DNA from: Alkanindiges illinoisensis DSM 15370
Lineage (GTDB): Bacteria; Pseudomonadota; Gammaproteobacteria; Pseudomonadales; Moraxellaceae
Direction of reading: 5' to 3'
Assembly: GCF_000619845.1 (NCBI RefSeq)
Contig: NZ_JHUX01000003.1
Span: 248,054 to 280,053 of the forward strand
DNA: 32,000 nt
Notes under the pieces: generated by a model
The model's input: only the letters and a program-made list of their open reading frames with translations
Databases searched by the model: none
Told to the model about the DNA's origin: nothing
Shown here: in pieces, positions 1 through 21,350 of the stretch
How the letters are laid out: each line of letters starts with the position of its first letter
Position numbering within the stretch: the stretch's first letter is position 1
Position numbers and translations under genes: made by a program

Positions 1-2298
1 AGCAAGCTTGAGCAATTTTCAAAAGATGGCACTTTAAAAGAGTGGGCTACTGACATTGGGGGTGTGCTGTCTGAAGCTGGTAGCCTGTTTATGGAGCTGG
101 TCGGTATTGTCGGCGATGTTGTGAGTGAAATCTCTACACTCTGGCAGGATCTGGCTGGGTCGGTCAATGAAAGTACTGGTGCTCAAATCGGCTTCTTTGA
201 GTTGCTTAAAAATTCACTTAAGGTTGTGCACGTATTCTTTATTGGGTTGCGTACTGGTATCCAGTTGGTGATGGCAGGCATTAAGGCGGTAGTCCAGGAT
301 GCTGTGGCCACTATTATTGCCTCATTTGTATTATTCCGCACTGGTATTAATACAGCAGTCATTGCGGTAAGCGGTTTTGTTGAAGGCTTAATTGTACTGC
401 TCAAGACACTGGCCACGGTGGCCATGAAGGCATTGCAGCTGGATTTTACTGGTGCTATTTCCGCCTGGGAAAGTGGCACCAATAAGATTGCTGGGATTGT
501 GAAAGACAAGGCTCAGCAGATTGCCAAAGAAACCCGTAGCATGAAATCTGATTTATCAGCTGCTGCTGGTGGATCAGCCTTGCTTAATGGCAGTTTCGTT
601 AATAATGCCAACAAGATTACTCAGGACAGCCGTCAGCGCATAGATGATGTGCTACTGGGTGATGTGTCCATGAAGTCACCTAAAGCCAGCAATGCAGGTG
701 CTGCTGGCAATTCAGCAGTGAATAAGGTGGCTGTCGGTGCTGGTAAGGCAAAAAAGGAAAAAGAGAAAAAACCTAAGGCTGAAAAGTCTGAAATGAGTGA
801 TCTCAACAAGGGTCTGGATGCCAAAAAGTACGAATTCAATCAGAAAGAAAACGTACCATTTGGCCGTAATCTTGAATTTCCGATTGAGCAAGAACGCGAC
901 TACTGGCAGGAAATTTTAGCTACTCGTAAACTTTCAGCCAGCGATCGCTTTCAGGTAGAAGAAAAGCTACAGGATGCAATTCTTAAGTTGCATCGGAAAG
1001 CGGGTGATGAACAGATCCGAACATATAAGGATGACGAGGCAAAATATCGTAATAATCTTGAAGCCAAAAAATCAGCATTGGAGCAGCTAGTTTTAGCCAA
1101 CAAGAAATTGTATGGCGACGATTCAGATCAAGCCAAGTCAGCTCTTAAGGAAGTAGCAGCAGTTAATCAAGAAATGACTTTGCGTGCCTTGGCTAACTTA
1201 AAAACATCGAGAGAGTTTAAGTCATCCCAGAAGGAAAAAGAGCTGGATGCTGAGCAAGCTCATATTGATCATTTAGCTAATCTTAATCTGATCTCTGATC
1301 GTGAAAAGTTGCAGCGAGAACGTGAGCTGGAACAAAAGCGCTATGAGATCAAACGACAAGCACTCGCTGATCGTATGGCACTGTGGGAGGCTGAGAATAA
1401 AGTCACCAATGATGCAGATCCCAAGGAAAAGCAATCCATTCGAAATTCCATGACGGAATTAGATGCTGATCATCAGCAAAATCAGAAAGGCTTTGACATG
1501 CAGTCAGAGGCTGAGAAGATGGAGCGCTTGTTTGGTGGGCTAGGGGATCGGGTCAGCAATTTGTGGGATCAGGGCTTGCAGACCATGATGAATGGCACGC
1601 TGACCTGGCGTAATGCCATGAATGCGATTTTTGCCGATATGGGCGCTTTCTTTGTACAAAAGATGGTCAGTGAACCTTTGAAGCATTATATGGCAGGCCT
1701 TGCACACCGATTACTCGTCAAGATGGGTGTGATCAAGACAGAAGTTGCTGCTGAATCTGCTGGTCAAGCCGCACAGACGGGGGCAACCATTGTTGGTGAG
1801 GCTAGTCGTACAGGCGCAACGGCAGCAGGTGGCCTGATGCGTATTGGTCTTAAAGCAATGGAAGCCGTTAAAGGCATTATGTTGTCTGCATGGGAAGCAA
1901 TGGCAAGTGCTTATGCATCAATTGCCAAAATTCCATTCGTTGGTCCTGTAATTGCTCCAGTAGTCGCTGGTGGAACATTTGCTGCTGTTGCGGCACTTGC
2001 CGGCAAGATCAAGTCAGCATCTGGAGGCTACGACATTCCGGCAGGTGTGAATCCTGTCACCCAGTTGCACGAAGAAGAAATGGTATTGCCTAAACCCTAT
2101 GCCAATGTTATCCGGGATATGGCCAGCGGTGGCGTACCTGCTGCGGGCGGATCTGGTGCCATGGGTGGAACGGTTGAGCAAAATCAGTTCAACATTTCTG
2201 CACTGGATGCCAAGAGCCTCAAAAAACTGCTACGTCAAAATCCCGGAGCAGTGGCTGCTGGCCTAAAGGCCTATGGCCGTAATTTTGGGAGCCGGTAA
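1..2298 (+). CDS. Phage tail tape measure protein (5' end truncated by the window edge)
   Basis: The frame is open from base 1 with no upstream stop, so the listed Met at 64 is internal. Long protein with N-terminal hydrophobic helices, a central K/E-rich coiled-coil region and a Gly/Ala-rich C-terminus. It sits immediately upstream of the distal-tail genes. Confidence 0.8.
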   Translation, partial: SKLEQFSKDGTLKEWATDIGGVLSEAGSLFMELVGIVGDVVSEISTLWQDLAGSVNESTGAQIGFFELLKNSLKVVHVFFIGLRTGIQLVMAGIKAVVQDAVATIIASFVLFRTGINTAVIAVSGFVEGLIVLLKTLATVAMKALQLDFTGAISAWESGTNKIAGIVKDKAQQIAKETRSMKSDLSAAAGGSALLNGSFVNNANKITQDSRQRIDDVLLGDVSMKSPKASNAGAAGNSAVNKVAVGAGKAKKEKEKKPKAEKSEMSDLNKGLDAKKYEFNQKENVPFGRNLEFPIEQERDYWQEILATRKLSASDRFQVEEKLQDAILKLHRKAGDEQIRTYKDDEAKYRNNLEAKKSALEQLVLANKKLYGDDSDQAKSALKEVAAVNQEMTLRALANLKTSREFKSSQKEKELDAEQAHIDHLANLNLISDREKLQRERELEQKRYEIKRQALADRMALWEAENKVTNDADPKEKQSIRNSMTELDADHQQNQKGFDMQSEAEKMERLFGGLGDRVSNLWDQGLQTMMNGTLTWRNAMNAIFADMGAFFVQKMVSEPLKHYMAGLAHRLLVKMGVIKTEVAAESAGQAAQTGATIVGEASRTGATAAGGLMRIGLKAMEAVKGIMLSAWEAMASAYASIAKIPFVGPVIAPVVAGGTFAAVAALAGKIKSASGGYDIPAGVNPVTQLHEEEMVLPKPYANVIRDMASGGVPAAGGSGAMGGTVEQNQFNISALDAKSLKKLLRQNPGAVAAGLKAYGRNFGSR

Positions 2299-2300
2299 TC

Positions 2301-2948
2301 ATGTCTGATGCAATTTTTCCACTATTACCTGGCTTAACGTGGAACCTGACCAAGACACCGATGTTCAACACCAAGGTGATGACCTCGGTCAATGGCCAAG
2401 AACTGCGGGCATCGTTTCAGGCGGTGCCAAAATATGCCATTAGCCTGGGCTTTGAATTTTTACGCCAGCGTGGTGGTAAAACCGAGCTGGATCAGTTGGA
2501 AGCATTCTTTTATGAGCGACGTGGGGCGTTTGATTCGTTCCTGCTGCTTATGCCGGATGATAACCAGTTTAGTTGTACCTTTGTGGGTGATGGGTCAACC
2601 ACGACTTATCAGGTCTATAAAAAACTGTTTAACAGTGTGATACCACTGTCAAATACCCTGCCATTTAGCCTTATTGTGGATGCCTCCATGTGGAAGCAGG
2701 CCAGTAGCACCCTCATGTGGGGTACTGCCAGCAACCTGATGTGGCCATCCAGCAATATGCAGCTTGATAGCAAGGGAATGTTGACACTGGCCACACCTTT
2801 AGAAGCGGGTAAAACATTAAGTGTTACTGGTACATATTATTACCGGTGTCGCTTTAAGGATGATGAGCAGCAATACACTAATTTTATGGCCAACCTTTGG
2901 GAGGCCAAGAAAATTGAGATGGTTGCTTCACTAGGGAGTAAGGTATGA
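2301..2948 (+). CDS. Distal tail protein, DUF2460 / TIGR02217-like (RcGTA g12-like)
   Basis: N-terminus FPLLPGLTWNLTKTPMFNTKV..SVNGQELR and the later LEAFFYERRGAFDSF match the DUF2460 pattern as I recall it. The start lies 3 nt after the tape measure stop. Confidence 0.7.
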   Translation: MSDAIFPLLPGLTWNLTKTPMFNTKVMTSVNGQELRASFQAVPKYAISLGFEFLRQRGGKTELDQLEAFFYERRGAFDSFLLLMPDDNQFSCTFVGDGSTTTYQVYKKLFNSVIPLSNTLPFSLIVDASMWKQASSTLMWGTASNLMWPSSNMQLDSKGMLTLATPLEAGKTLSVTGTYYYRCRFKDDEQQYTNFMANLWEAKKIEMVASLGSKV

Positions 2949-3802
2949 GAGCAGCTTCAGCTAAATTGATCCAGCTGCTGGATGCCAACCAGTTTGTTAT
3001 GGCCGACCTTTACACATTGACCACTATTTTGGGGAAGGTGTACCGGTTTACCAATTATGATCTGGATCTGACAGTGGCTGGCCAGCTGTACCGTGCTGAT
3101 GGTCCTATCATCAGCCGTGACGGCATCAAGCAAACCACGGGCATTGAGGTTAGTAGCCTAAACATTGAGATTAAGGTCAATGATACGGTGCTTCTGGATG
3201 GCGTGCCATTTATTCAGTTACTGCATAACGGTGGCCTTGATGGAGCGCGGTTTAAGCTAGAGCGTATTTTCATGGACTGGCAGACACCAACTGATACCAG
3301 CGCTGGCACTATTAAGCTGTTTGAGGGTAGGCTGGTTGAGCCAGAGTTTCACCGCACCGGTGCCAGCTTTGAAGTGGCGTCCGATACGGAAGTTCTCAAT
3401 GTGCAGATGCCACGTAACCTGTACCAGCCTGGCTGTTTAAATACCCTGTTTGATTCAGGCTGCGGTTTGGTCAGAGCCGCGTATGCTGAGCTGGCCACTG
3501 TGGAAATCAATACCGTGGCCAACCGTATTCAATGTAGCCTTAATCATGCCCAGGGTTATTTTACCCAGGGTGTGGTCGAGTTTTTATCCGGAATAAATAC
3601 TGGGGTAAAACGCACGATTCGCCTGCATGAGTCCGGCGCGCTGCATCTCACCTTGCCATTGCACCAGTTGCCGGCCGTGGGTGACCAGATCCGGGTTTAT
3701 CCAGGCTGTGACAAGCGCATGGATACGTGCACCAACCGTTTTAATAACCTGTCAAATTTCCGGGGCTTTCCCTTTGTCCCGGTTCCTGAAACCGCTGTTT
3801 AA
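2945..3802 (+). CDS. Tail hub protein, DUF2163 plus BR0599 C-terminal domain (RcGTA g13-like)
   Basis: ATGA overlap with the upstream gene. The C-terminal GCDKRMDTCTNRFNNLSNFRGFPFVP is the characteristic Phage_BR0599 motif. Confidence 0.75.
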   Translation: MRAASAKLIQLLDANQFVMADLYTLTTILGKVYRFTNYDLDLTVAGQLYRADGPIISRDGIKQTTGIEVSSLNIEIKVNDTVLLDGVPFIQLLHNGGLDGARFKLERIFMDWQTPTDTSAGTIKLFEGRLVEPEFHRTGASFEVASDTEVLNVQMPRNLYQPGCLNTLFDSGCGLVRAAYAELATVEINTVANRIQCSLNHAQGYFTQGVVEFLSGINTGVKRTIRLHESGALHLTLPLHQLPAVGDQIRVYPGCDKRMDTCTNRFNNLSNFRGFPFVPVPETAV

Positions 3803-3823
3803 CTCAATTAATTTTCTTTTATA

Positions 3824-3846
3824 CCCGGCCAGTGTGCCGGGTTTTT
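3824..3846 (+). terminator. Rho-independent terminator inside the tail operon
   Basis: Perfect stem CCCGGC (3824-3829) / GCCGGG (3836-3841), 6-nt loop, then TTTTT (3842-3846). Confidence 0.7.
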
Positions 3847-3859
3847 CATTGTTGGAGAG

Positions 3860-6800
3860 ATGACAATGGCTGATTTACCTGTTGCAGATGACCTTATTGC
3901 ACCTAGTATTACTGAAGGTCAGTTTAAAGCGGCACTAAAGATATTAGTAGAAAACGTTGTTAGCAAAGATTATGTAAATAACAACGCTTTATTTAAACCG
4001 GTAGCCATTTCAAGTGGCCAATATACGCATATCGACCAGTTTAAAACAGCAGGCTATTACTTTGTACGTTCGACAGCCATTGCTACGGCCATTGTTGGAC
4101 TACCAGAAAGCCGGCCGTGCATCATTGAAGTGATTGCTAACACAAATAGTGCTAACACAAATATAGTATCGCAGATCATTAGACCGCTCGGTGCTGCTTA
4201 TTATTATTTTAGATCAACACTAAGCACGGGCGAATTTGCTGCTACATTTGAGAAAGTTATTGGACAAGCCGCGATTGCGACGCTAATTAGCACTGCAAGC
4301 GATGCTGCCAAAGCTGCTGCAACTGCTGAAGCAAAAACCTACAGCGACACAAAACTTGACGCAAAGCAAGTGATTTATGCGTACAGTGATGGCAATATGA
4401 TCGGCGCAAAAACACTACGCTACCCAAATTTTGGCTTGCGCGGTGATTATACGATTGCAGATAGTACCGTTTATGATGCCGTTATTGTACCAGTGCAGGC
4501 AGGCGATACGCTATACATTCACAACGATCAGTCACGTTACACTGGCTCAACTGGATCGAACTATGCGTTTTTTGCGCAAAACCCGTTTTTAAACAGGGCG
4601 CAAACCGCGCTTGCAACATCCGGTGCTGACAGCAGTACAACGGATAGCACTAGCGCAATTATATATAAAAAGGCGATTGCACCCGCTGATGCCCGTTATT
4701 TAATCGTAAATGAGCGTTTTACCGCAAATGCGGGTGGTACAACAAACTATAACTGGGCGGTGCATAAAGACGCATTCAATCCGGCATATACACAAGGCAA
4801 TGCCTATGTTGCTGAGATAGACGGCATCAAGTTTAAGGATACGTCTGTAAAATTATCAAAAGAAAACAACCCTACTGTGTCAGCAAAAAACATCTACACA
4901 GGTGATGTCAACGTTAAAGCACGGGTAAACGACAACGGTGTGTATATCAGTGCCAATGCCAATGACATTTTATCGCCATTTATTCCGGTTGAATTTGGCA
5001 AGACCTACACCATTAGCGGCATACCCCGCGACATGATGGCAACAACGGCAACCCGCATCATGGGTGTTGCCAGCAACACAGTGCCGAGCACAGACTTTGT
5101 CAAAGTTTTAACGACAACTACTGACACTACTGTCACTGTTACAATTAATGACGTGCAGATTAAATATATTGTATTCCCACTGGCTGCTAACAATCTGGGT
5201 GTGCTGGAAAAAGCACAATTTGCGCCAGTGCAGATTGAGGTCGGCAGCGTAGCCACTGCCTATCAACCCTCCGAATATACAATAGCACTCCAGCGCGTCA
5301 TTAATAAATTTAGCACTAGCGCAAACAGCAGCGGGGCGTTGAAAGATGCAGGCATAAAAGTTGTATCGCAATTTATTGACTTAAACATGGTACGCGAGCC
5401 ACAAATGAGTACTGTGTCACCGATTATCAAAGGTGTCGGCCCGCGCGGTGCAAGTTATGGCGTTAAAGGTACGGCGGCGACAGATAGTGCGAGCAATAAT
5501 ATCTATGCCCAGTTTGATGTGCTTAGCGACAGCAACAAAGCGGTTAATGTCAATGTTATAAAATACGTCAATGGCGAGAGGGCTGCTGGCGTGCTGCATC
5601 CGCGTGCATTTAGCGTACCATCCGGGGCATTAGATAACCCGGACAGCTTTGCTTACGCTGACAAATATCCCAAAGATTTATCAACGCACCCAGTGATTGC
5701 TTATACCGCAACGCCCATCGCAGGATTTAATTACTGGATGATTTCGTCTACTTTTCCGCCCACCTCGGAATCCGGTGTAAAGTGGGAAGATGAAGATATG
5801 TTTGTCAGTAATGATGCGGTGACGTGGCAGCGTATCCGCTCAGTCTATGAAACTGACAAGTCATACACGACAGCAACACTGCGCTTGCCGCCGCAAACGC
5901 TGGTTACCAACAACTCGCGCAAGCATTGTTTTTTACCATCCCCTGCCGTTGGTGATGTGTTTGAAGTAAGCGTACCTGCGAGCAATGGCGCACCAGCACT
6001 TGACCGCCAAACCATGACACTGAGTACACGCTTGCCGTGGAAGCATGACCCGTACTTGCTCATTGACGATGGGTACATCTACACATACCACTCTTTTAAC
6101 CTGTTTTTTAACGAGCGCAATGACGAAAAGAGTCACTTTTTTGTCTGCGTCCGCACTAATAATGGGATTGATTGGGATGTCGTGCGCACTGACGGTAGCA
6201 CCATGCGATTAACCGAAGCCACAAGCCGTCAGCTCTTCACCAAAGACGATCAAGGTCGTTATAACTATATGAATTATGCGTATAACGATGATCGCCAGAA
6301 CCCTGAAATTGTTAAATACGGAACAGGTGATTATGAGCTGGTATGGGGCAGGAACTTTACAGTGCGTTATAAAGGCACAACGCCGTATGCGTTTGATTTT
6401 TCTACTGCGTATCCGTTTAAGGATACCAGCTCGACAAACCATCCGACCTTGTTATTTAAAGACAATATTTTATATGTCATTACAAACAAGGCGGTGTATC
6501 AAAGTACAGACCGTGGCGCGACATTGACGGTGTTGCCAAAATACCCAATGTGGCTGGGTGGTGTGCAGGGCTTTGGCTATAAAAAAAGCTGCTGTATCGG
6601 CGCTGGTGACAAATTTATTGTTGCAGATACCCAGCGCATTAATGCACCCGCTTTTACATCAGGCGCGGTCAACGCAGTTAATGACATCAATCAAGTGTTT
6701 TTCTATGAGTATCCGAGTTTTACTGATTTTTTAACTAAAGCAAACACGGGTTTAATTGATGCGTACATAGATTTGCAAGTGACTAAAGTAAATCTAAATA

Positions 6801-6991
6801 CAAATAGCCGCCAGGTCTTAAATATACCCTGCATTAGCCCAACTGCGTCTAGCGCAACAGGGATTGCTGCACTGTACCGCTTGAAAGTGGCTGACTTAGA
6901 GCTAAAAGCAGGCGACACGGTATATTTTCACGTTACGCTAAATTCAAGATCAGGCGCTGAAATTGTATTTGGCGGTATTGATTTGACTTGA
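3860..6991 (+). CDS. Large multidomain tail fibre / tailspike-like protein with a putative beta-propeller glycosidase-like C-terminal region
   Basis: Residues around 55-130 (TAGYYFV..GLPE..CIIEVIAN..VSQIIRP..YYYFRS) resemble a pyocin-knob-type fibre domain. An Ala-rich AAKAAATAEAKTYSDTKLDAK linker is typical of fibres. Three Asp-box-like motifs are present: SNDAVTW 5807-5827, TNNGIDW 6155-6175 and STDRGATL 6503-6526. The GGAGAG RBS at 3853-3858 suits the ATG at 3866 better than the one at 3860. No family assignment is possible by eye. Confidence 0.45.
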   Translation: MTMADLPVADDLIAPSITEGQFKAALKILVENVVSKDYVNNNALFKPVAISSGQYTHIDQFKTAGYYFVRSTAIATAIVGLPESRPCIIEVIANTNSANTNIVSQIIRPLGAAYYYFRSTLSTGEFAATFEKVIGQAAIATLISTASDAAKAAATAEAKTYSDTKLDAKQVIYAYSDGNMIGAKTLRYPNFGLRGDYTIADSTVYDAVIVPVQAGDTLYIHNDQSRYTGSTGSNYAFFAQNPFLNRAQTALATSGADSSTTDSTSAIIYKKAIAPADARYLIVNERFTANAGGTTNYNWAVHKDAFNPAYTQGNAYVAEIDGIKFKDTSVKLSKENNPTVSAKNIYTGDVNVKARVNDNGVYISANANDILSPFIPVEFGKTYTISGIPRDMMATTATRIMGVASNTVPSTDFVKVLTTTTDTTVTVTINDVQIKYIVFPLAANNLGVLEKAQFAPVQIEVGSVATAYQPSEYTIALQRVINKFSTSANSSGALKDAGIKVVSQFIDLNMVREPQMSTVSPIIKGVGPRGASYGVKGTAATDSASNNIYAQFDVLSDSNKAVNVNVIKYVNGERAAGVLHPRAFSVPSGALDNPDSFAYADKYPKDLSTHPVIAYTATPIAGFNYWMISSTFPPTSESGVKWEDEDMFVSNDAVTWQRIRSVYETDKSYTTATLRLPPQTLVTNNSRKHCFLPSPAVGDVFEVSVPASNGAPALDRQTMTLSTRLPWKHDPYLLIDDGYIYTYHSFNLFFNERNDEKSHFFVCVRTNNGIDWDVVRTDGSTMRLTEATSRQLFTKDDQGRYNYMNYAYNDDRQNPEIVKYGTGDYELVWGRNFTVRYKGTTPYAFDFSTAYPFKDTSSTNHPTLLFKDNILYVITNKAVYQSTDRGATLTVLPKYPMWLGGVQGFGYKKSCCIGAGDKFIVADTQRINAPAFTSGAVNAVNDINQVFFYEYPSFTDFLTKANTGLIDAYIDLQVTKVNLNTNSRQVLNIPCISPTASSATGIAALYRLKVADLELKAGDTVYFHVTLNSRSGAEIVFGGIDLT

Positions 6992-7009
6992 TAATCATAT
7001 TAATCCGCA

Positions 7010-7027
7010 CTTATTTAATTAAATAAG
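7010..7027. repeat. Perfect 18-bp A/T-rich palindrome at the right edge of the inserted cassette
   Basis: CTTATTTAA|TTAAATAAG, read directly. It lies between the stop of the 1043-aa gene and the RBS of the NlpC/P60 gene. Confidence 0.6.
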
Positions 7028-7034
7028 GAAAACC

Positions 7035-7457
7035 ATGAAAACTGATTTAATTATTACTGAAGCCAGATCCTGGCTCGGGACGCCTTACCATCATCAAGGG
7101 CGGATTAAGGGCGTAGGGGTGGACTGTGGCATGCTGCTCTGTGAGGTTTATCATGCAGCAGGCCTTATTCCCTTTGTTGATCCTCGGCCATATCCCCCGG
7201 ACTGGTATATGCACCAGATGGACAATAAATACTTGGACTGGGTGAAACAATATGCCGAGCCAGTAGCTACACCAAAACAGGGCGATATCGCCCTGTTTCA
7301 TTTTGGAAAATCGATTAGCCATGCGGCCATTGTGGTGGCATGGCCAACCATTATCCATGCCTATCATGGCCAGGGCTGCATATTGGGTGATGCGACCAAG
7401 GGCAGGCTGTGCAGTAATTTAGCCGGTTTTTGGCGTATCCGGGAGAATCAGGGATGA
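7035..7457 (+). CDS. Phage cell-wall peptidase, NlpC/P60 family (RcGTA g14-like, TIGR02219-like)
   Basis: WLGTPYHHQGR..GVGVDCGMLLCEVY supplies the catalytic Cys context. GDIALFHF....SHAAIV supplies the His context. Confidence 0.8.
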   Translation: MKTDLIITEARSWLGTPYHHQGRIKGVGVDCGMLLCEVYHAAGLIPFVDPRPYPPDWYMHQMDNKYLDWVKQYAEPVATPKQGDIALFHFGKSISHAAIVVAWPTIIHAYHGQGCILGDATKGRLCSNLAGFWRIRENQG

Positions 7458-9931
7458 GCGGCGGTACAATAAGAATATCGGCAGAAAAATCCAATAGCTT
7501 GCGCGTACAGACCTCAGCCTATGGCTTATGCCTGCCACTGATTTATGGCCGGCAGCGGGTTGCCGCTAATATGTTCTGGTATAGCGATTTTAATGCCATT
7601 GCTCATACCACCACCAGTAAATCCGGGGGCTTTTTAGGTATGGGTAAAACCAAGACTAAAAACACCACCTACACTTATCAGGCAGCACTGATGCTAGGAC
7701 TTGGGGAGTCCATCACCTCAGTAGACACCATCTGGATTGACAAGGATCAGGTCACAGCCAAGCAAAATGGTGGCGCAACAGAAACGGCACTGGCCCAGCG
7801 TGGCCTTGAACTGTTTACTGGCCAGAATAACAGTGTCTGGGGTTATTTAACTTCCCGGCATCCGGATCAGGCTTTAACGTATCCAAGGCTTGCCTATATT
7901 TGCTCTGGCGCGTATGACCTGGGCGAAAGTGCTACATTGGCCAACCATGGGTTTGAAGTCACCGGCAAGTACTCCATTTCCAGCACTGTGCTAGACGCTA
8001 ACCCGGCTGATGTGATTTATGACTATATCAAAAATCCCAATTATGGTGCGGCGCCTGATTTAAACTTGGCTAGCTTAAGTCAGTTCAGAACGTATTGTGC
8101 TGCTGCCAACCTGTTGGTGAGCCCTGCATTTACTGAACAGCGCTCTGCCTATGAAGCGATTAACGACCTGGTGGAATCGGTTAATTGTGCCGTGGTGGCC
8201 AGCGCTGATGGCTTAAAAATCATTCCGTATGGCGATGCACCACTCACTGGCAACGGTTATACCTATACACCGAATTTAACCCCGGTGTATCACTTAACTG
8301 ATGATGACTTCCTGGATCAGGAGGAACCGGTCAGGGTCAAGCGTAGCCGGGATTCTGATGCCTATAACCATTGCCAGATTGAATACGTCAACCGGCACAA
8401 CCAGTACAATACGGAAATCGTAGAGGCTAAGGACCAGGCCAATATTGAAATGTACGGCCTGCGCACTGAAGATCCGGTCAAGCTGAACCACTTTTGTGAG
8501 CCAGTGATTGCCCGCCATGCTGTCCAGCTGCGCATGCAGCGTAAACTGCATATCCGGAATATTTATGAGTTTGAGCTGGGCTGGAAGTACTGCCGGCTGG
8601 AACCTATGGATATTGTCACCCTGACAGATTCATCCTTAGGCTTAAACCAGTTTCCAGTGCGTATTAAGGACATTGACGAAGATGATGACGGCCAGCTGAC
8701 AATCACCGCTGAAGAACTGGTGATCGGTGTTGGGAGTGCCATTAACTATGACCTGCAATCGTCCAACGGTTATCAGGGCGGCAATGAAGATCCGGGGCCT
8801 GTATTTGCACCAGTAATTTTTGAGCCACCGCTGGAATTAACCGATGGCAACAATGAAGTGTGGGTGGCTGTTGCCGGTGGACCAAACTGGGGTGGCTGTC
8901 AGGTTTGGGTGAGTTACGACAATCAGAGCTTCAGTCAAGCAGGGGCTGTTTACGGTGCGGCACGCTATGGCCAGCTTATTGGCAGTATCGATGCAGACGA
9001 TACAGCATTATATGTTGAGCTGAACACCAGCCTGCAAATTTACTCATCCAGCACCGTGGCAGTGGAAGCCGATGTAAGCCTGGTGCTTGTTGGTAATGAA
9101 TACCTGTCTTATCTGAATTCCACGTTAACTGGCCAGCAAACCTACCAGCTGACGGATCTGGAGCGCGGCCGCTTCAATGATGCCCAGGCACATACGGACA
9201 ATACCCGTGTGGTGGTGTTAGATAGTGCCATCTTCAATGCGACAGTGAATAAAAACCTGATCGGTAAAACCATCTATTTAAAATTTACCAGTTTTAACAG
9301 TCTGGAGCGCAAGCACGAGCAGCTGGCCGATGTGGCTGCTTATTCTTACACCCTGGTTGGCGGTGCACCGGGTGGGCCAGCAGGCCTGTCATTGGTTGCA
9401 CCTTTTAATGGCAATAGCTTTACGGTGCAGTGGTCATTTGTCAGTGGTGCGAGCAGCTACGTGGTGCAGATCCTGTCAGATGGGGTGGTGCGGCGTGAAG
9501 TGGAAGTGACATCCACCAGCTACAGTTATGGTTATCAGGATGCTGCTACTGATGGTGGCCCATGGCGTGCTTTTACGGTACGAGTGGCCAGCCGGTCAAA
9601 TGGCAGTGTTTCGGCCTTTGCTGAGCTGAATGTCAGTAATCCTGTGCCGGCAGCAGTCGTTAATGTGATTGCTGTTCCTGGAACAAATAGCATCAGTGTG
9701 TCATGGGATAATAGCAGTGCACCAGACCTGAAGGACTATCAGGTCTGGCTATCAACAACCAGTGGTTTTGATCCTGCCACAATGGCTGCCTCATGGACTG
9801 GAAACAGTACTAACCATACCTTTACGGGTCTGGCTAGTGGTGCCACCTATTACATTCGGGTTGCGGCGCGGGATGTTTGGGGCGCTGGTGCACTAAATTA
9901 TTCAGGACAGGTTAGCCAAGCGGCTGGCTAA
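7454..9931 (+). CDS. Host-specificity / central tail-tip protein (lambda J-like / RcGTA g15-like) with two C-terminal fibronectin type III-like domains
   Basis: LRVQTSAYGLCLPLIYGRQRVAANMFWYSDF is the conserved N-terminal pattern of this family. The ATG at 7454 forms an ATGA overlap with the upstream stop and follows GGGAGA, so I prefer it to the ORF-track start at 7430. The C-terminal region from about 9370 to 9928 holds two FN3-like repeats (SFTVQWS..YVVQI..., SISVSWD..YQVWL..YYIRVAARD). Confidence 0.75.
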   Translation: MSGGTIRISAEKSNSLRVQTSAYGLCLPLIYGRQRVAANMFWYSDFNAIAHTTTSKSGGFLGMGKTKTKNTTYTYQAALMLGLGESITSVDTIWIDKDQVTAKQNGGATETALAQRGLELFTGQNNSVWGYLTSRHPDQALTYPRLAYICSGAYDLGESATLANHGFEVTGKYSISSTVLDANPADVIYDYIKNPNYGAAPDLNLASLSQFRTYCAAANLLVSPAFTEQRSAYEAINDLVESVNCAVVASADGLKIIPYGDAPLTGNGYTYTPNLTPVYHLTDDDFLDQEEPVRVKRSRDSDAYNHCQIEYVNRHNQYNTEIVEAKDQANIEMYGLRTEDPVKLNHFCEPVIARHAVQLRMQRKLHIRNIYEFELGWKYCRLEPMDIVTLTDSSLGLNQFPVRIKDIDEDDDGQLTITAEELVIGVGSAINYDLQSSNGYQGGNEDPGPVFAPVIFEPPLELTDGNNEVWVAVAGGPNWGGCQVWVSYDNQSFSQAGAVYGAARYGQLIGSIDADDTALYVELNTSLQIYSSSTVAVEADVSLVLVGNEYLSYLNSTLTGQQTYQLTDLERGRFNDAQAHTDNTRVVVLDSAIFNATVNKNLIGKTIYLKFTSFNSLERKHEQLADVAAYSYTLVGGAPGGPAGLSLVAPFNGNSFTVQWSFVSGASSYVVQILSDGVVRREVEVTSTSYSYGYQDAATDGGPWRAFTVRVASRSNGSVSAFAELNVSNPVPAAVVNVIAVPGTNSISVSWDNSSAPDLKDYQVWLSTTSGFDPATMAASWTGNSTNHTFTGLASGATYYIRVAARDVWGAGALNYSGQVSQAAG

Positions 9932-9947
9932 AACAATTTTATTTTTC

Positions 9948-9972
9948 AAAGCTCCTAATCGGGAGCTTTTTG
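9948..9972 (+). terminator. Rho-independent terminator after the host-specificity gene
   Basis: Stem AAAGCTCC (9948-9955) / GGAGCTTT (9962-9969), followed by a T run. Confidence 0.7.
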
Positions 9973-9996
9973 CATTTTGAATGGAAGGGAAATCTT

Positions 9997-10377
9997 ATGT
10001 CTGAACCAGTTTCGACGTATGGGGCAGGGGCATTGCTCAAGGCTTATGGCGCTGGCCTGATCATTGGCTTGTTTATTGTGTTGGGTTATCTGGTTGTGAT
10101 TATGACTCGGATGCCACGCACACGGCCAGAGTGGGCTGTTGGGCTGATTGCAACAGTGGTATCCAGTTTAGCTGGCGGCTCATTTTTGGTGATTAAGTAC
10201 CAGCTTCATTCCTGGGGTAATGATTATTACGGCATGGTCGCTTTAGGCGGCTTTTATTTTGCCTGCGGATTGCCGGGCTGGGCGCTGATCCGCTGGATAT
10301 TCAATTTTATCAACCAGCGCGAGGGCGCCACGATTATTGATGTTGTCCGTGAAGTGAAGGACGAGATCCAAAAATAA
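9997..10377 (+). CDS. Putative holin (three predicted transmembrane segments, charged C-terminal tail)
   Basis: The ATG at 9997 is preceded by GGAAGGGA. Three hydrophobic stretches are followed by a charged tail (REVKDEIQK). The gene sits directly upstream of the endolysin. The call rests on position and topology only. Confidence 0.5.
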   Translation: MSEPVSTYGAGALLKAYGAGLIIGLFIVLGYLVVIMTRMPRTRPEWAVGLIATVVSSLAGGSFLVIKYQLHSWGNDYYGMVALGGFYFACGLPGWALIRWIFNFINQREGATIIDVVREVKDEIQK

Positions 10378-10398
10378 CCGGTGTTTTTTTATTCATTA

Positions 10399-10425
10399 AG
10401 ACTTCCTGCAGGAAGTCTTTTTTTT
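10399..10425 (+). terminator. Rho-independent terminator between the holin and endolysin genes
   Basis: Perfect stem AGACTTCC (10399-10406) / GGAAGTCT (10411-10418), TGCA loop, then seven T. Confidence 0.75.
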
Positions 10426-10444
10426 ATGTCTGAAGGGAAATATT

Positions 10445-11209
10445 ATGCTACTGAAGAAAGGTAATACTGGGTCAGCTGTCAAACGATTGCAAACTGCACT
10501 GGCCAAGCAAGGGTTATATATTTATTTGGTAGATGGTGACTTTGGCCAAAAGACTGAAGATGCACTAAAAGCGTACCAGCAAAAATTCAATGTCAAACCT
10601 GATGGCATTTTAGGTGACTATATTGCCGGCAAGCTCGGCCTGGTATTATCTGTGCCAGCTGGTGCACCAGCAAACACTAAACCGGTTATTGTGCTCACTG
10701 CTGGCCATAGTCTGGTAGATCCGGGCGCGTGTAATGGAAAATTCACTGAAGCCGGGATTGTGCGGGAAGTGCGTAACGGCGTAACGGCCATATTGAACAG
10801 TCGAGGCTACAAAGTCATTAATGATGGCACTGGAAACGACAACCAGGCTTTAAGCAAAGCTGCTGCACTAGTCAAACAGGGTAAAATCGCTATCGAGTTT
10901 CACTTGAATGCTGCAACCAGTAAAGCGGCCACCGGTGTTGAAGCATTAGCTCAATCGAAAGATAAAGCGATCTGTCAAAAACTGTGTAGTGCGCTCTCAA
11001 GCGTGCTTGATATTCCTGTACGCGGTGGCAATGGTGGCTGGAAGGATGAAGGCAGTGGCCAGCACAGCAAACTTGCCTACGTCAGTGCCGGAGGCATCAT
11101 TCTTGAGCTATTTTTCATCAGCAACGATGCAGAGCTGCAAAAATACTTCGACCGCAAGGATCAAGTGTTTACGGCCATTGCTGATGTACTGAGTGAAAAT
11201 TTAACATGA
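10445..11209 (+). CDS. Endolysin: N-terminal peptidoglycan-binding domain (PG_binding_1) plus N-acetylmuramoyl-L-alanine amidase (Amidase_3-like)
   Basis: GNTGSAVKRLQTALAKQG...DGDFGQKTEDALKAYQQKFNVKPDGILG is a typical PG_binding_1 repeat. VLTAGHS..DPGA and IEFHLNA...ATGVEAL fit the zinc amidase pattern. No signal peptide is present. Confidence 0.75.
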   Translation: MLLKKGNTGSAVKRLQTALAKQGLYIYLVDGDFGQKTEDALKAYQQKFNVKPDGILGDYIAGKLGLVLSVPAGAPANTKPVIVLTAGHSLVDPGACNGKFTEAGIVREVRNGVTAILNSRGYKVINDGTGNDNQALSKAAALVKQGKIAIEFHLNAATSKAATGVEALAQSKDKAICQKLCSALSSVLDIPVRGGNGGWKDEGSGQHSKLAYVSAGGIILELFFISNDAELQKYFDRKDQVFTAIADVLSENLT

Positions 11210-11215
11210 GAGCAT

Positions 11216-11243
11216 AAAAAAGCCCGAATTAATCGGGCTTTTT
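11216..11243. terminator. Bidirectional intrinsic terminator between convergent genes
   Basis: Stem AGCCCGA (11221-11227) / TCGGGCT (11233-11239), flanked by an A run on the left and a T run on the right. Confidence 0.7.
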
Positions 11244-11246
11244 ACA

Positions 11247-12020
11247 TCATGCACGAGTTATTTTACGATTAAACATTTCAGATAAGGCAGCATCTAAAGC
11301 ATCTTCCTGCTCTTCTGTGCGATCTGCATAAATTTCAATACAAGGGGCCATAGGGGATAACTTAGCTTGCACGAGTGCCTGACGAATTTCTTTAATCTCA
11401 GCAACATCGTTAGCAGATAAAGTACTATGAGTATCAATCGCAGTAATTGAAAAAGAAGATTCTTTTCCTAATTCTTTGTTCATAACAAACCCCTTAACAG
11501 CCATAGCATGGCTAACATCATCTATCGTCATCTCAGTTGTTGCTTCTGGTAAATTGTGACTACTTGTGGCAATTTCGTAAAAATGAACATGGCTTCCAGT
11601 ATGTACATCACGATGTGAAGCTGAATGAACAGCTTTTTTAGCACATTTATTAACTTCCCAGCATGTGATTGCAGGTAAGGTTCCTGAGCCTGTGATTGAA
11701 AGTATATCTTTATGGAAAATTCTTTGATTCTCGTGATAAAAATGCTTACCGTTTTCTAAATCAATAATGCAAATAGCCATAGAATGAGCAGAAGGTCTAG
11801 GAGTACTATAATCTCCTTTTAACCAATCTTTCCATTTTTGAATAGCTGTTCCAGAGCCTGCAAAAAGAAAGCCAAATGCGTGCTGTTCAACATCTTTAAT
11901 CACGAGTTTTGGGTAATTGACCTCGTCAATATATACCATCCACTTAGAAGGTGCCAGCGTTGACCATCGAGTATCTGCTGCTATAATTCCATTTAAACCG
12001 TCAAATACATTTGTTGTCAC
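11247..12020 (-). CDS. Prophage-end orphan: N-terminal HslV/proteasome-beta-like Ntn-hydrolase-like region plus an uncharacterised acidic C-terminal region
   Basis: GTG start preceded by GAGAG. Visibly A/T-rich and on the opposite strand to the phage late genes. MTTNVFDGLNGIIAADTRWS parallels HslV [22 protein letters not shown] and proteasome beta TTIV....GVVLAADTR. FLFAGSGTAIQKW parallels GFAGGTADAF. ITGSGTLPAI parallels IAIGSGGPYA. The assignment is by eye only. Confidence 0.4.
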   Translation of the reverse strand: MTTNVFDGLNGIIAADTRWSTLAPSKWMVYIDEVNYPKLVIKDVEQHAFGFLFAGSGTAIQKWKDWLKGDYSTPRPSAHSMAICIIDLENGKHFYHENQRIFHKDILSITGSGTLPAITCWEVNKCAKKAVHSASHRDVHTGSHVHFYEIATSSHNLPEATTEMTIDDVSHAMAVKGFVMNKELGKESSFSITAIDTHSTLSANDVAEIKEIRQALVQAKLSPMAPCIEIYADRTEEQEDALDAALSEMFNRKITRA

Positions 12021-12339
12021 TAAATACTCTCTATTATTTTCATTAAAATAAGTATGAAAAAATTGACGCGAATCCTACACAATAAAGTTCAAAAAAACAA
12101 CGCTATTTTTTAGTGGAATTCGGCCTTACATTTTTTAAATTATTAATAATTATTTTAAAAATTGTCCAGTCCATTTATCGGATCTATCCATGAATTTTAA
12201 AGATATCCTTTTATACTTACTAATACCGATATTCTGAATAGGCATTTTTCAAAATTTAATCATATTGCAGTATAAGTAAAACCTTATGTTTTACGACTTC
12301 CTACTTTATATAAAAAATCAGAGCGCAGGTTTCTTTGTC

Positions 12340-12438: not shown

Positions 12439-14259
12439 ATGTCAAGTAACGTAACTCGTTGTAAAATAGAGAATATTAGAAACTTCTCGATTATTGCTCA
12501 TATTGACCACGGCAAGTCCACGCTGGCTGACCGTTTTATTCAGCGTTGTGGCGGCTTGCAGGATCGTGAAATGCAGGCGCAGGTTCTAGATTCCATGGAT
12601 CTGGAGCGTGAGCGTGGTATTACCATTAAGGCTCACTCAGTAACGCTCTACTATAATCATCCCAACGGGGAGCGTTACCAGCTCAATTTTATTGATACGC
12701 CGGGTCATGTTGATTTTTCCTATGAAGTGTCTCGCTCGCTGGCGGCCTGCGAAGGGGCTTTGCTGGTCGTTGATGCTGCACAAGGTGTGGAGGCGCAATC
12801 CGTTGCAAACTGTTATACCGCAATTGATCAGGGACTTGAAGTTTTACCTGTCCTGAACAAGATTGACTTGCCACAGGTTGAGCCAGAACGTGTCATCAAG
12901 GAAATTGAGGAAATCATTGGTATTGAAGCTGAAGATGCGCCGCGTGTTTCTGCGAAATCAGGCTTGGGCATTGATGAACTGCTGGCCACGCTGGTAGATC
13001 GTATTCCTGCGCCAACCGGAGATCGTGATGCACCGCTACAGGCCTTGATCATTGATTCCTGGTTTGACAATTATCTGGGTGTCGTGTCTTTGGTTCGGGT
13101 ACGTCATGGCCGTATCAAAAAAGGCGATAAAATGCTGGTGAAGTCAACCGGCATGAGCCATCTGGTAACTTCTGTGGGCGTATTTAACCCCAAGCATCAA
13201 GAAACTGGTTTGCTAGAGGCTGGTGAAGTTGGCTTTGTGATTGCGGGCATTAAGGACATTTTTGGCGCACCAGTAGGTGATACCATTACCCTGCACAGTA
13301 CCCCTGATGTAGAGATATTACCCGGTTTTAAACAGGTTAAGCCACAGGTTTATGCGGGTTTATTCCCCATTGATTCCAGTGATTTCGAGGCGTTTCGCGA
13401 AGCATTGCAAAAGCTACAAATTAATGACGCCGCGCTATTTTTTGAGCCGGAAAGCTCGGATGCACTGGGCTTTGGTTTTCGCTGTGGTTTTCTGGGTATG
13501 TTGCACATGGAAATTGTGCAGGAGCGCTTGGAGCGGGAATACGATCTTGATCTGATTACATCGGCGCCGACTGTAATTTATGAAGCCGTTAAGAAAAATG
13601 GCGACACCGTTTATATTGATAACCCGTCCAAAATGCCGGATGGCGGTACTGTTGAAGATTTGCGTGAGCCGATTGCCGAGTGTCATATTTTAGTTCCTCA
13701 GGAGTATCTGGGTAACGTGATGACCTTGTGCATTGAGCGCCGTGGTATTCAAAAAGATCTTAAGTTTCTGGGCAATCAGGTTGCTGTAACTTTTGAAATC
13801 CCCATGGGTGAAGTGGTGATGGATTTCTTTGACCGTTTAAAATCAGTATCCCGTGGTTTTGCCTCGCTGGATTATAATTTTGTCCGTTTTGAAAGCTCGA
13901 GTCTGGTTAAGGTTGATGTGCTGATTAACGGTGAAAAAGTCGATGCACTGGCCATGATTTGCCATCGTAATGATGCGCGTTATCGGGGCAATGCACTGGT
14001 TGAAAAAATGAAAGACCTGATTCCGCGTCAGATGTTTGATGTCGCCATTCAGGCAGCGATTGGTGGTCAGATCATTGCACGCTCTACGGTTAAGGCCATG
14101 CGTAAAAACGTTCTGGCCAAATGCTATGGCGGTGACGTATCGCGTAAGAAAAAACTGCTGTCCAAGCAAAAAGAAGGTAAAAAACGCATGAAGCAGGTGG
14201 GGAGTGTTGAAATTCCTCAAGAAGCGTTCTTGGCGGTGTTACAGGTTGATAAAAAATAA
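12439..14259 (+). CDS. lepA: Elongation factor 4 (translational GTPase LepA)
   Basis: [20 protein letters not shown] (G1), DTPGHVDF (G3), NKIDL (G4), and collinear similarity to E. coli LepA across the full length. Confidence 0.97.
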
Positions 14260-19970: not shown

Positions 19971-21350
19971 ATGAAGAACAAACAGGAAAAGCCGATGGTC
20001 AGAAGCAGGACAACGTCCATAACGGTGTTGCCAAATGCCAGTGCGGTCAACCTGATTTTTTATGGCACACCGGGTACCGGTAAAACCTGGCAGTTGCAGC
20101 AATTGCAGCAGCAATACACCGAGCAGCTGGCACAACAGAATCATGACACCTTTCTCACTGAGAAAATACGTGAGTTAAGCTGGCGCGAAGTGATTTGTCT
20201 GGTGTTTCTGGAAGAAAAGCGCCTGCTGCGTGTGCCGGAAATTTTGAATCATCCTTTAATGCGCTGTAAAGTGCAGCTCACCAATCGCAAGGAAAACATC
20301 AGCCAGACCATCTGGGGCACACTGATGCGGCACAGTGCGCTGGATTCCAGTACTGTTAAATATAATCCTGATAAACGCTCAAGCCTGGCATTGTTCGATA
20401 AGGACGAAGCAGGCTTGTGGTTTTTGTTGCCCAGTGCCAGTGATGATATTGCCCATCTGGCAAAACTGCTAAAAATTATTGAACATGGCGCGCAAGCTGC
20501 TGAGGTCATTCAGCGCTATAGTTTTGTCACCTTTCATCAATCCTATAGCTATGAGGATTTTGTAGAGGGTTTGCGTCCGGTACTGGATGACGATGAAAAC
20601 GGCCAGATTCGTTATGAAATCCGGCGTGGCATTTTTGTAGAACTGTGCGAACGCGCCCGGCTTGATCCAGCGCATCCGTATGCCTTGTTTATTGATGAAA
20701 TCAACCGGGGCAATGTATCCAAAATTTTTGGCGAGCTGATTAGCCTGATTGAACTGGACAAGCGACAGGGCAGGACAAATAGCCTGGAAGTGGTTTTACC
20801 CTATTCGCACAGTAAATTTAGTGTGCCTCCCAATGTCAGTATCTATGCTAGCATGAATACGGCTGACCGTTCCTTAAGCCCTATAGATATTGCCCTGCGT
20901 CGGCGTTTCCAGTTTGTGGAAATGCAGCCAAATTATGAACTATTAGAGCAAGCAGTGCAGGGTAAGCCGGTAAACAGTGATCTTGCAGGGCTGGATTTAA
21001 GTCAGTTGCTGCAAAGTATTAATGCACGGATTGAGTTGCTTATAGGGCGGGATTATCTACTGGGGCATGCATTTTTTTGTGCAGTAGAAGGTTTTGCTGA
21101 CTTACAGGCAGTTATGCAACACAAAATTATTCCGCTATTGCAGGAGTATTTCTTTGATGACTGGCAAAAAATCCGGTTAGTGCTGAACGATCATCGTAAG
21201 CCTGTCGACTTGCAGTTTATTCAACTGGGCAATAGCGAACAGCAGGCCATAGCACTATTTGGAGAGATGCCGGATGTGCCTTTGCAAACTAGTTATACCA
21301 TCAATAAAGCGGCCTTTACACAAATTCAGGCCTATCAACTCATATGCTAA
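19971..21350 (+). CDS. McrB-family AAA+ GTPase subunit, atypical: no N-terminal reader domain and a roughly 125-aa insertion after Walker A
   Basis: Walker A GTPGTGKT (20064-20087), FHQSYSYEDFVEG, Walker B plus McrB signature LFIDEINRGNVSKIFGELISLIE, MNTADRS, and ALRRRFQF. In E. coli McrB, about 23 residues separate GKT from FHQSYSYEDF; here 148 do. An alternative start at ATG 19995 has a better RBS (AGGAAA). Confidence 0.85.
   Translation: MKNKQEKPMVRSRTTSITVLPNASAVNLIFYGTPGTGKTWQLQQLQQQYTEQLAQQNHDTFLTEKIRELSWREVICLVFLEEKRLLRVPEILNHPLMRCKVQLTNRKENISQTIWGTLMRHSALDSSTVKYNPDKRSSLALFDKDEAGLWFLLPSASDDIAHLAKLLKIIEHGAQAAEVIQRYSFVTFHQSYSYEDFVEGLRPVLDDDENGQIRYEIRRGIFVELCERARLDPAHPYALFIDEINRGNVSKIFGELISLIELDKRQGRTNSLEVVLPYSHSKFSVPPNVSIYASMNTADRSLSPIDIALRRRFQFVEMQPNYELLEQAVQGKPVNSDLAGLDLSQLLQSINARIELLIGRDYLLGHAFFCAVEGFADLQAVMQHKIIPLLQEYFFDDWQKIRLVLNDHRKPVDLQFIQLGNSEQQAIALFGEMPDVPLQTSYTINKAAFTQIQAYQLIC

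Follow-up and report, generated by a model that had tools for sequence, protein, structure and literature searches.

A minus-strand gene encoding a proteasome-like protein lies at the end of a prophage in a 32,000-nucleotide stretch of the Alkanindiges illinoisensis DSM 15370 genome (contig NZ_JHUX01000003.1). This stretch is called the window below. The product resembles the N-terminal nucleophile (Ntn) hydrolases of the proteasome, and the gene is referred to here as the Ntn gene. A preliminary description of this DNA had reported a 257-amino-acid (aa) open reading frame (ORF) on the reverse strand, and both the ORF and all the peptide strings quoted from it are present. The protein begins with MTTNVFDG in the ORF listing and is 100% identical to WP_156935674.1, a hypothetical protein of Alkanindiges illinoisensis. 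The features of the locus are collected in Table 1.

Table 1. Positions of the Ntn gene and of the features around it, in window coordinates
Feature	Position	Strand	Remarks
Complete coding sequence, proteasome-family N-terminal-threonine peptidase homologue	11247..12020	-	257 aa; GTG start; TGA stop at 11247-11249
Catalytic Ntn domain, residues 1-181	11478..12020	-	AlphaFold2, Foldseek, PHROG 1040, family alignment
C-terminal helical extension, residues 182-257	11250..11477	-	AlphaFold2; acidic in the window protein
Bidirectional intrinsic terminator	11217..11243	.	Between endolysin (+) and Ntn gene (-)
5′ region of the Ntn gene	12021..12112	-	Conserved with the homologous phage locus L009/L010
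Endolysin, peptidoglycan-binding and amidase domains	10445..11209	+	Last gene of the late operon; convergent with the Ntn gene
lepA (EF4), first host gene	12439..14259	+	Promoter and first codons on the prophage side of the putative att core
att core-like segment within the 5′ end of lepA, codons 5-23	12453..12506	.	80%-identical in-frame copy in L009/L010

As the preliminary description had judged by eye, the gene is richer in A and T than its surroundings. Its GC content is 0.376 (0.236 at third codon positions), compared to 0.473 for the phage part of the window (positions 64-11209) and 0.471 for the host genes lepA to pdxJ. The base composition is foreign to phage and host alike. A bidirectional terminator had been proposed to insulate the gene from the late operon, and this element is also found. 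The 27-nucleotide sequence, AAAAAGCCCGA-ATTAA-TCGGGCTTTTT, contains a GC stem of 6 base pairs that is lengthened by two flanking tracts, one of A and one of T. The hairpin folds on both strands (−15.6 and −18 kcal/mol; z −5.2 and −5.7), and 0 of 200 shuffled sequences are as stable. This terminator is not called by a simple consensus scan.

A homologue that is 73% identical to the window protein (P0002) is carried by two metagenomic phage contigs, L009 and L010. The 112 nucleotides located 5′ of the Ntn gene, counted to include a GAGAG ribosome-binding site 6 nucleotides ahead of the GTG codon and the GTG start itself, are 79% conserved between the window phage and the L009/L010 phage. In the same region, a weak sigma-70-like promoter match is present at 12060..12033. 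With its own terminator and a conserved 5′ region, the gene has the anatomy of an autonomous transcription unit. Its promoter region, its terminator, and its orientation opposite to the late operon make expression from the resident prophage probable.

The GTG start is supported because the MTTNV sequence is kept throughout the family and the GTG codon is kept in L009. This choice matters in practice. An older UniParc entry for the same protein (UPI00047C5B59) is 230 aa long and begins at Met28, so that residues 1-27 (window 11940-12020) are missing, and with them the catalytic threonine and the first two strands. The ratio of nonsynonymous to synonymous substitution rates (dN/dS) relative to the P0002 gene of L009 is 0.17 and is similar in both halves of the protein, which indicates that the gene is under purifying selection. 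A spurious ORF or a pseudogene is ruled out by this ratio and by the conservation of the family.

A proteasome-like fold and its catalytic residues

An AlphaFold2 monomer model of the window protein, built on an alignment of 18 sequences, has a predicted local distance difference test (pLDDT) score of 90.4 and a predicted template modelling (pTM) score of 0.87. The model adopts the alpha-beta-beta-alpha sandwich of the proteasome/HslV-type Ntn hydrolase superfamily (MEROPS T1 fold). When it is compared with the PDB by Foldseek, there are 103 matches at E ≤ 1e-3, and among the matches listed 50 of 50 are proteasome beta subunits with a probability of 1.0. The top matches are catalytic beta5 subunits (E 7e-6) with moderate target template modelling (TM) scores of 0.42-0.49, and sequence identity to the matches listed is 14-19%. 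In BFVD, a collection of predicted viral structures, the best Foldseek matches are phage proteins labelled proteasome subunit beta, HslV, or Ntn hydrolase, or without a name. The best-fitting of these are ~150-175 aa long and reach target-normalised TM scores of 0.6-0.64.

Profile searches agree with the structural result for phage families. PHROG 1040, named ‘peptidase HslV family’, matches residues 1-171 with E 3e-13 over profile positions 14-179 of 277, and the C-terminal part of this profile has no match in the window protein. All 18 of the relatives from the first search round match the same family (best E 7.6e-18), and 0 of the 18 match Pfam Proteasome. Scans of the window protein with Pfam and NCBIfam yield nothing significant, with the best score being 16 bits for TIGR03634 against a cutoff of 224. 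Matches to urease-beta and GAIN at E ~0.02-0.05 were judged to be due to chance, as were zinc-finger matches in a phmmer search of PDB sequences that otherwise returned nothing real. The family profile finds beta5 among PDB sequences at only E 0.017, yet the alignment is in register. It places FAG on MAGG (Gly47) and A-x-x-x-D-x-x-S-G-G on AAHRDAYSGG (Asp166, Ser169, Gly170). The check by profile search and by AlphaFold and Foldseek that had been proposed for the Ntn fold thus comes out in its favour.

Conservation of individual residues was counted in an alignment of 211 diverse full-length relatives. Thr2 of the window protein, which corresponds to Thr1 of the proteasome, is present in 202 of the 202 aligned N-termini that lack a gap at this position. 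Asp16 (proteasome Asp17) is found in 207/209 sequences, whereas Lys38 (Lys33) and Gly55 (Gly47) are found in 211/211. The Gly111-[Ser/Thr]-Gly113 triplet, which is Gly111-Ser112-Gly113 in the window protein and corresponds to the Ser129 loop, is likewise invariant (211/211), as are Asp138 (Asp166; 211/211) and a serine or threonine at position 141 (Thr141 here, Ser169 in the proteasome; 211/211). Gly142 (Gly170) is kept in 208/211. Family-wide, the N-terminus reads M-T-T-[N/T]-[V/I/A] and has no propeptide, in keeping with the earlier prediction that a threonine nucleophile is exposed by removal of the methionine. That prediction had left out the residues that speak most strongly for an active enzyme, namely Lys33 (K38) and the Asp166/Ser169 motif (D138/T141). 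Given a complete and invariant catalytic set of an active beta subunit, an active threonine peptidase is the straightforward reading, and on this basis the window protein is very probably an active member of the proteasome family.

In the proposed mechanism, methionine aminopeptidase would remove the initiator methionine and leave Thr2 as the first residue; neither a propeptide nor autolysis would be involved. Threonine is permitted at the P1′ position of this aminopeptidase. The hydroxyl and alpha-amine of the new N-terminal threonine would then form a triad with Lys38 and Asp16, and Gly55 would supply the oxyanion hole. Ser112, Asp138, and Thr141 would brace the active site, and peptide bonds would be cleaved. 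This chemistry is borrowed from that established for the proteasome; what the alignment itself demonstrates is the conservation of the residues.

Three cysteines are also frequent in the family and are encoded at window positions ~11340-11662. These are C120 (188/211), C126 (137/211, with Asp in the remaining sequences), and C227 (95/211, with Phe or Thr in the remainder). A C-W-x-x-N-x-C-A-K-K-A motif is located at the H3/H4 junction. A search for covariation among C120, C126, and C227, as might reflect a disulphide or a metal site, revealed no clear pattern.

The model departs from a classical beta subunit in its helices. After strand S5 there is only one predicted helix (57-68), between strands 47-56 and 81-87, and helix H2 is missing from the model. 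An additional helix (166-176) is predicted ahead of the last strand of the core. Beyond the core, the AlphaFold2 model has ~75 further helical residues, and the extra domain is estimated at ~75-100 aa, with its start placed at about residue 156 or 182. The preliminary description had noted an acidic C-terminal region of roughly 100 aa that it could place in no family. The second half of this statement stands, as the region has no match in Pfam, NCBIfam, PHROGs, or PADLOC. When modelled alone, the C-terminal 102 residues give a pLDDT of 82.7, and this isolated model has no Foldseek match in the PDB (best E 2.7). The acidity is real for the window protein, in which residues 156-257 have an isoelectric point (pI) of 4.6 and contain 18 Asp or Glu and 10 Lys or Arg residues. 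As a family trait it is ruled out, because the median pI is ~5.3 in both halves of the protein family-wide. The region is poorly conserved save for Gly177 and Ala225-Pro226.

In HslV and beta subunits, H2 contributes to the surface that faces the ATPase or the alpha ring. Loss of H2 together with a fast-diverging C-terminal domain would replace this surface, and the C-terminal domain may select the substrate or set the assembly state. Presumably, the enzyme would then be a specific protease rather than a bulk degradation chamber.

Mobile-element contexts and possible roles

The label ‘orphan’ that had been given to the gene is incorrect. A first search yielded only 18 relatives among 5.8 billion proteins, and a profile search of 1.84 billion cluster representatives yields 573 at E ≤ 1e-3 and 176 at E ≤ 1e-30. 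Nearly all of those found by the profile are 235-265 aa long and are matched end to end. Most members are metagenomic sequences, and the named ones come from Alkanindiges, Pseudomonas, Chromobacterium, and Pseudogulbenkiania, all of which are Proteobacteria. Searches by tblastn with three family members against 50,697 GenBank phage genomes, and with one member against 72,556 PLSDB plasmids, gave no match. A hand-made degenerate DNA pattern for the N-terminal motif detected 16 viral contigs in IMG/VR, and 15 of the 16 were confirmed by the family hidden Markov model.

The element that carries the window gene can be delimited by comparison with L009 and L010. In these contigs, the gene order is an integrase, a 54-bp segment, a 61-aa ORF, the Ntn homologue, and a convergent phage lysozyme. 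The 54-bp segment (L009 5603-5656; L010 14-67) is 80% identical, in frame, to the lepA segment given in Table 1. Because it has phage genes on both sides, it is read as an attP core that mimics the 5′ end of lepA, and its position between the integrase and the Ntn gene places the boundary of the window prophage in the matching segment, with the Ntn gene inside. By this analogy, the prophage would end within 12453-12506 and the Ntn gene would lie ~430 bp inside that end, which agrees with the earlier placement of the gene in a slot for accessory (moron) genes between the lysis cassette and the phage/host junction. The 5′ end of lepA appears to be the integration site of the prophage. If so, the 418-bp spacer (27.8% GC), the lepA-lepB promoter, and the first lepA codons would be phage DNA in the lysogen.

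The element is read as a temperate siphovirus-like prophage in the 5′ end of lepA, apparently in Alkanindiges illinoisensis. On the 5′ side of the endolysin, and all on the plus strand, are genes for a tape measure protein, a glycoside hydrolase, a tail assembly protein, a 1043-aa ORF product, a minor tail protein, a J-like tail protein, and a phrog_1024 protein. The host genes downstream of the Ntn gene are lepA, lepB, rnc, era, recO, and pdxJ. A prohead maturation protease is ruled out for the Ntn gene by its location, which is not in the head module, and by its unsuitable orientation and fold.

Two neighbouring features were noted in passing. The 1043-aa ORF (3860-6991) sits midway through the tail module and, unlike all its neighbours, matches no PHROG at E ≤ 1e-5. 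On the host side, after miaE and ~8 kb from the prophage end, a pair of McrB-like and McrC-like genes (19971-22645; NCBIfam E 2e-42 and 2e-26) is a host defence locus near the integration site.

Inspection of the neighbourhoods of ~25 loci revealed the following genomic slots. The gene is located at prophage extremities, by host DNA and after tail or lysis genes or by the integrase, in the window and in L009/L010, L095, L096, L108, L110, L113, and L114. At L108 it adjoins an O-antigen acyltransferase and a ‘GT4-conflict’ glycosyltransferase (assigned by Pfam only), and at L113 it is convergent with a DUF2514 spanin-like gene. Other copies are found in immunity regions, by CI-like, Arc, or helix-turn-helix (HTH) genes (L011/L012, L014, L102), or in early or replication regions, often on the opposite strand (L004, L013, L100, L109). 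Satellite-like integrase islands near smpB (L001, L002) carry the gene along with DRT3a/DRT3b (PADLOC E 1e-115 and 1e-199) or a GajA/Old-like ATPase. In a further integrase island (L005-L007), it lies directly by a type I restriction-modification (R-M) system, with the type I restriction endonuclease adjacent (PADLOC). Finally, it is the first cargo gene after tnsA-tnsB-tniB-tniQ in a Tn7-like transposon (L097 5434-10732; L098 3-4603). There, a Peptidase_S24 gene and a 1045-aa type I/IIG methylase-specificity fusion follow the Ntn gene, and a 1142-aa GajB/RTasHel-like helicase-nuclease is located upstream. The neighbours confirmed by PADLOC are therefore DRT3a/b, the type I restriction endonuclease, the GajA/Old-like ATPase, the GajB-like helicase, and the type I/IIG methyltransferase-specificity fusion.

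No conserved partner gene is present across the ~25 loci, and no AAA+ gene is adjacent in any homologous locus. The slots occupied are those where lysogenic-conversion and defence genes accumulate, and they indicate that the family is accessory cargo of temperate and integrative elements. The survey of homologues suggested in the preliminary description thus leads to mobile elements rather than to housekeeping contexts.

Some of these loci have additional features. P0009 and P0200, which are 49% identical, share a chromosomal junction in two Pseudomonas genomes but are carried by different elements, one a satellite-like island and the other a tailed prophage. The junction (L001 10001-10729; L096 10001-10732) follows a lactate permease gene and a PA14_33160-like gene near smpB, which suggests that the gene has repeatedly been placed at the extreme end of elements using this site. 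A protein of the same length, 277 aa, and without a Pfam match accompanies the Ntn gene in two different Pseudomonas integrase islands, next to the integrase in one (L001 14186-15019; L002 4602-5435) and directly upstream of the Ntn gene in the other (L005 8864-9697; L006 6157-6990). In L011 (8821-10792) and L012 (2700-4689), a CI-like repressor gene, an Arc-family gene, an ORF of 164-188 aa, and the Ntn gene follow one another on the same strand, an order that recalls the immI arc-ant region of P22.

Taken as a whole, the observations are best explained by a self-contained threonine peptidase, an autonomous accessory (moron) gene of the prophage, that acts in conflict between mobile elements. 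We hold this reading tentatively, at slightly below an even chance. Superinfecting phages would be excluded or aborted by cleavage of a phage protein or of an essential host protein, in the manner of Lit. The genomic context suggests such a role in defence or exclusion, to which we give a similar or somewhat lower chance. It is rather unlikely, though worth stating, that the gene represents an unrecognised single-gene anti-phage module in which the threonine protease is the effector and the fast-evolving C-terminal domain is a sensor or specificity element. A module of this kind would have spread as cargo of prophage ends, satellites, integrative islands, and Tn7-like transposons.

Several points weigh against a self-contained peptidase that acts in defence. 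A scan of the window protein with PADLOC-DB v2 yields 0 families at E ≤ 10, and the defence neighbours, at ~5 of 25 loci, constitute an anecdotal rather than a statistical enrichment. The copies in early or replication regions (L004, L013, L100, L109) fit a phage-benefiting role equally well, as do the structural cousins found by Foldseek in virulent and jumbo phages of BFVD. Moreover, the assignment of Thr1, Asp17, and Lys33 rests on spacing, predicted strands, and invariance rather than on superposed coordinates. Isolated proteasome beta subunits are normally inactive outside the assembled ring (Fuchs, Alva and Lupas, Bioinformatics 2021; PMC8665760, section 3.3). For this reason, ‘self-contained’ is an assumption.

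Some of the same observations would suit a protease that serves the mobile element itself, either in counter-defence or in host takeover, by degrading a host immunity protein, a host regulator, or a protein of a competitor during entry, induction, or lytic growth. Virulent and jumbo phages have no lysogens to protect, and the PPH and AAH classes of proteasome homologues are found in Caudovirales (PMC8665760). Likewise, the four loci named above place the gene in early, replication, or recombination modules, and anti-defence genes also occupy the accessory hotspots of mobile elements. However, the window gene, which has a promoter region and a terminator to itself, lies at the att-proximal end and runs against the late operon, and relatives are cargo of Tn7-like transposons and integrase islands directly by R-M and DRT systems. 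In addition, the three query proteins found no member in the GenBank phage records. We consider this function improbable.

The copies in immunity regions raise the possibility of a regulator of lysis and lysogeny, or one acting between prophages, in the form of a proteolytic ‘antirepressor’ that cleaves a repressor or regulator of its own or a rival prophage. The gene is downstream of a CI-like repressor gene and an Arc-family gene in L011/L012, divergent from an HTH_3 and Peptidase_S24 repressor gene in L102, and, in the Chromobacterium prophage of L014, next to HTH_3 and LuxR-type genes. At most loci, and also in the window, the gene is remote from the immunity region, and Tn7-like transposons and non-phage islands are ill-suited to phage-specific regulation, which makes this role quite improbable.

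Whichever role applies, the window gene offers a test case. It encodes an apparently fully active member, has no partner gene, forms a clean transcription unit, and occupies the att-proximal moron slot of a prophage that appears to integrate into lepA, and its relatives travel with DRT3, R-M, and Gabija-like genes. A protease acting in defence or counter-defence would represent a new catalytic class among the proteases of phage-bacterium conflict and would give phage-linked proteasome homologues their first biological role. If it is an anti-phage module, bacterial immunity would gain its first demonstrated enzyme with a proteasome fold. Even with no role in conflict, the protein would be a tractable model of a proteasome-fold enzyme without a chamber or an unfoldase.

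Comparison with known systems

Among characterized proteins, 20S beta subunits (beta5/PRE2, MEROPS T1) provide the best structural matches, and they share the full catalytic set, including Asp166, Ser169, and Gly170 in register. Unlike these subunits, the window protein lacks a propeptide, H2, and an alpha-ring partner, and it has an additional C-terminal domain. Its scores are below the Pfam and NCBIfam thresholds, and it is encoded by a single gene on a mobile element.

HslV (ClpQ) is similar in having a Met-Thr-Thr N-terminus that is exposed by removal of the methionine, a bacterial setting, and a small catalytic domain, and the nearest PHROG bears its name. These similarities, together with the lack of a propeptide as in E. 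coli HslV and a GSG loop in register, could be taken to mean that the protein forms an alternative HslV-type core, whose rings dock on host HslU or another AAA+ unfoldase and redirect ATP-dependent proteolysis. We regard this as highly improbable. No HslV or Proteasome model of Pfam or NCBIfam matches the window protein significantly, and an hhalign comparison with an E. coli HslV sequence aligned only the GSG region (29 columns, E 0.049). The neighbours are the endolysin gene and lepA rather than hslU, and an adjacent AAA+ gene is missing from every locus. In the model, H2, which in HslV and beta subunits lies on the face that meets HslU or the alpha rings (PMC8665760), is absent. Furthermore, HslV is ~175 aa long, compared to 257 aa here, and has no such C-terminal domain, whereas the window protein keeps the RD-x-x-S/T-G motif of the beta-subunit type. 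The proposal that the protein is an HslV is ruled out by the failure to match the family models, the limited hhalign result, and the lack of an hslU neighbour. The initial suggestion of an HslV/proteasome-beta fold therefore holds for the Ntn fold, and the protein is nearer to 20S beta subunits and to the PPH and RPC homologues than to HslV proper.

Connectase is a second stand-alone protein with a proteasome fold, an altered first helix pair, and an additional C-terminal domain, and it demonstrates that this fold with extra elements can be a highly specific monomeric ligase (PMC8665760). A peptide ligase or transpeptidase might thus be considered in place of a hydrolase, as the window protein is likewise extended by a C-terminal domain and has an incomplete first helix pair. 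However, connectase is archaeal and specific to methanogens, and the window-protein model shows no counterpart of its lid, which consists of two helices inserted between S3 and S4. No connectase is present among the Foldseek or family-profile matches listed, and the full hydrolytic set of a beta subunit is kept, including Asp166 and Ser169. Ligase activity is accordingly the faintest of the prospects considered here.

The functional analogy proposed above is with an abortive-infection module that is likewise a single protease gene borne by a prophage. Lit of the defective prophage e14 is a zinc metalloprotease that cleaves EF-Tu on T4 infection. Its fold and catalytic class are unrelated to those of the window protein, and the analogy is one of lifestyle only.

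The closest resemblance is to a class that has already been described. Fuchs, Alva and Lupas (Bioinformatics 2021; PMC8665760) catalogued 22 new proteasome homologues, including PPH proteins of ~140 aa in Caudovirales and prophage contexts, and the RPC class, listed in Proteobacteria only and not in phages (Table 1 of that paper). PPH and RPC were catalogued without a function, as were, apart from connectase, the other homologues outside the classical set of 20S, HslV, Anbu, and BPH. In the full-text literature, we found no functional or defence study of HslV-like, proteasome-like, or Ntn proteins in phage defence. The preliminary description had stated that no role was described for such a protein in this setting; this is correct with regard to function, although phage-associated homologues and a C-terminally extended proteobacterial class had been catalogued in 2021 (PMC8665760).

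Like RPC, the window family has a beta-sandwich of the proteasome type that carries Thr1, Asp17, Lys33, and Gly47, and it lacks a propeptide. H2 is absent from the window-protein model, as stated for PPH and RPC only (PMC8665760, section 3.3), and both families have an additional C-terminal domain without a match to known structures. In addition, the named members of the window family are from Proteobacteria only. One difference is that the window family is found on prophages, IMG/VR viral contigs, islands, and transposons, whereas RPC was catalogued in Proteobacteria only. Because all four RPC traits fit, the window family is most probably RPC or a close sister, as judged by the traits described for that class (representative WP_140207863). 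The window gene is a further member of a class that is already catalogued. To this class, the present analysis adds an active-site audit over 211 relatives, the occurrence of C-terminally extended members as mobile cargo with defence neighbours, and the reconstruction of a lepA attP site.

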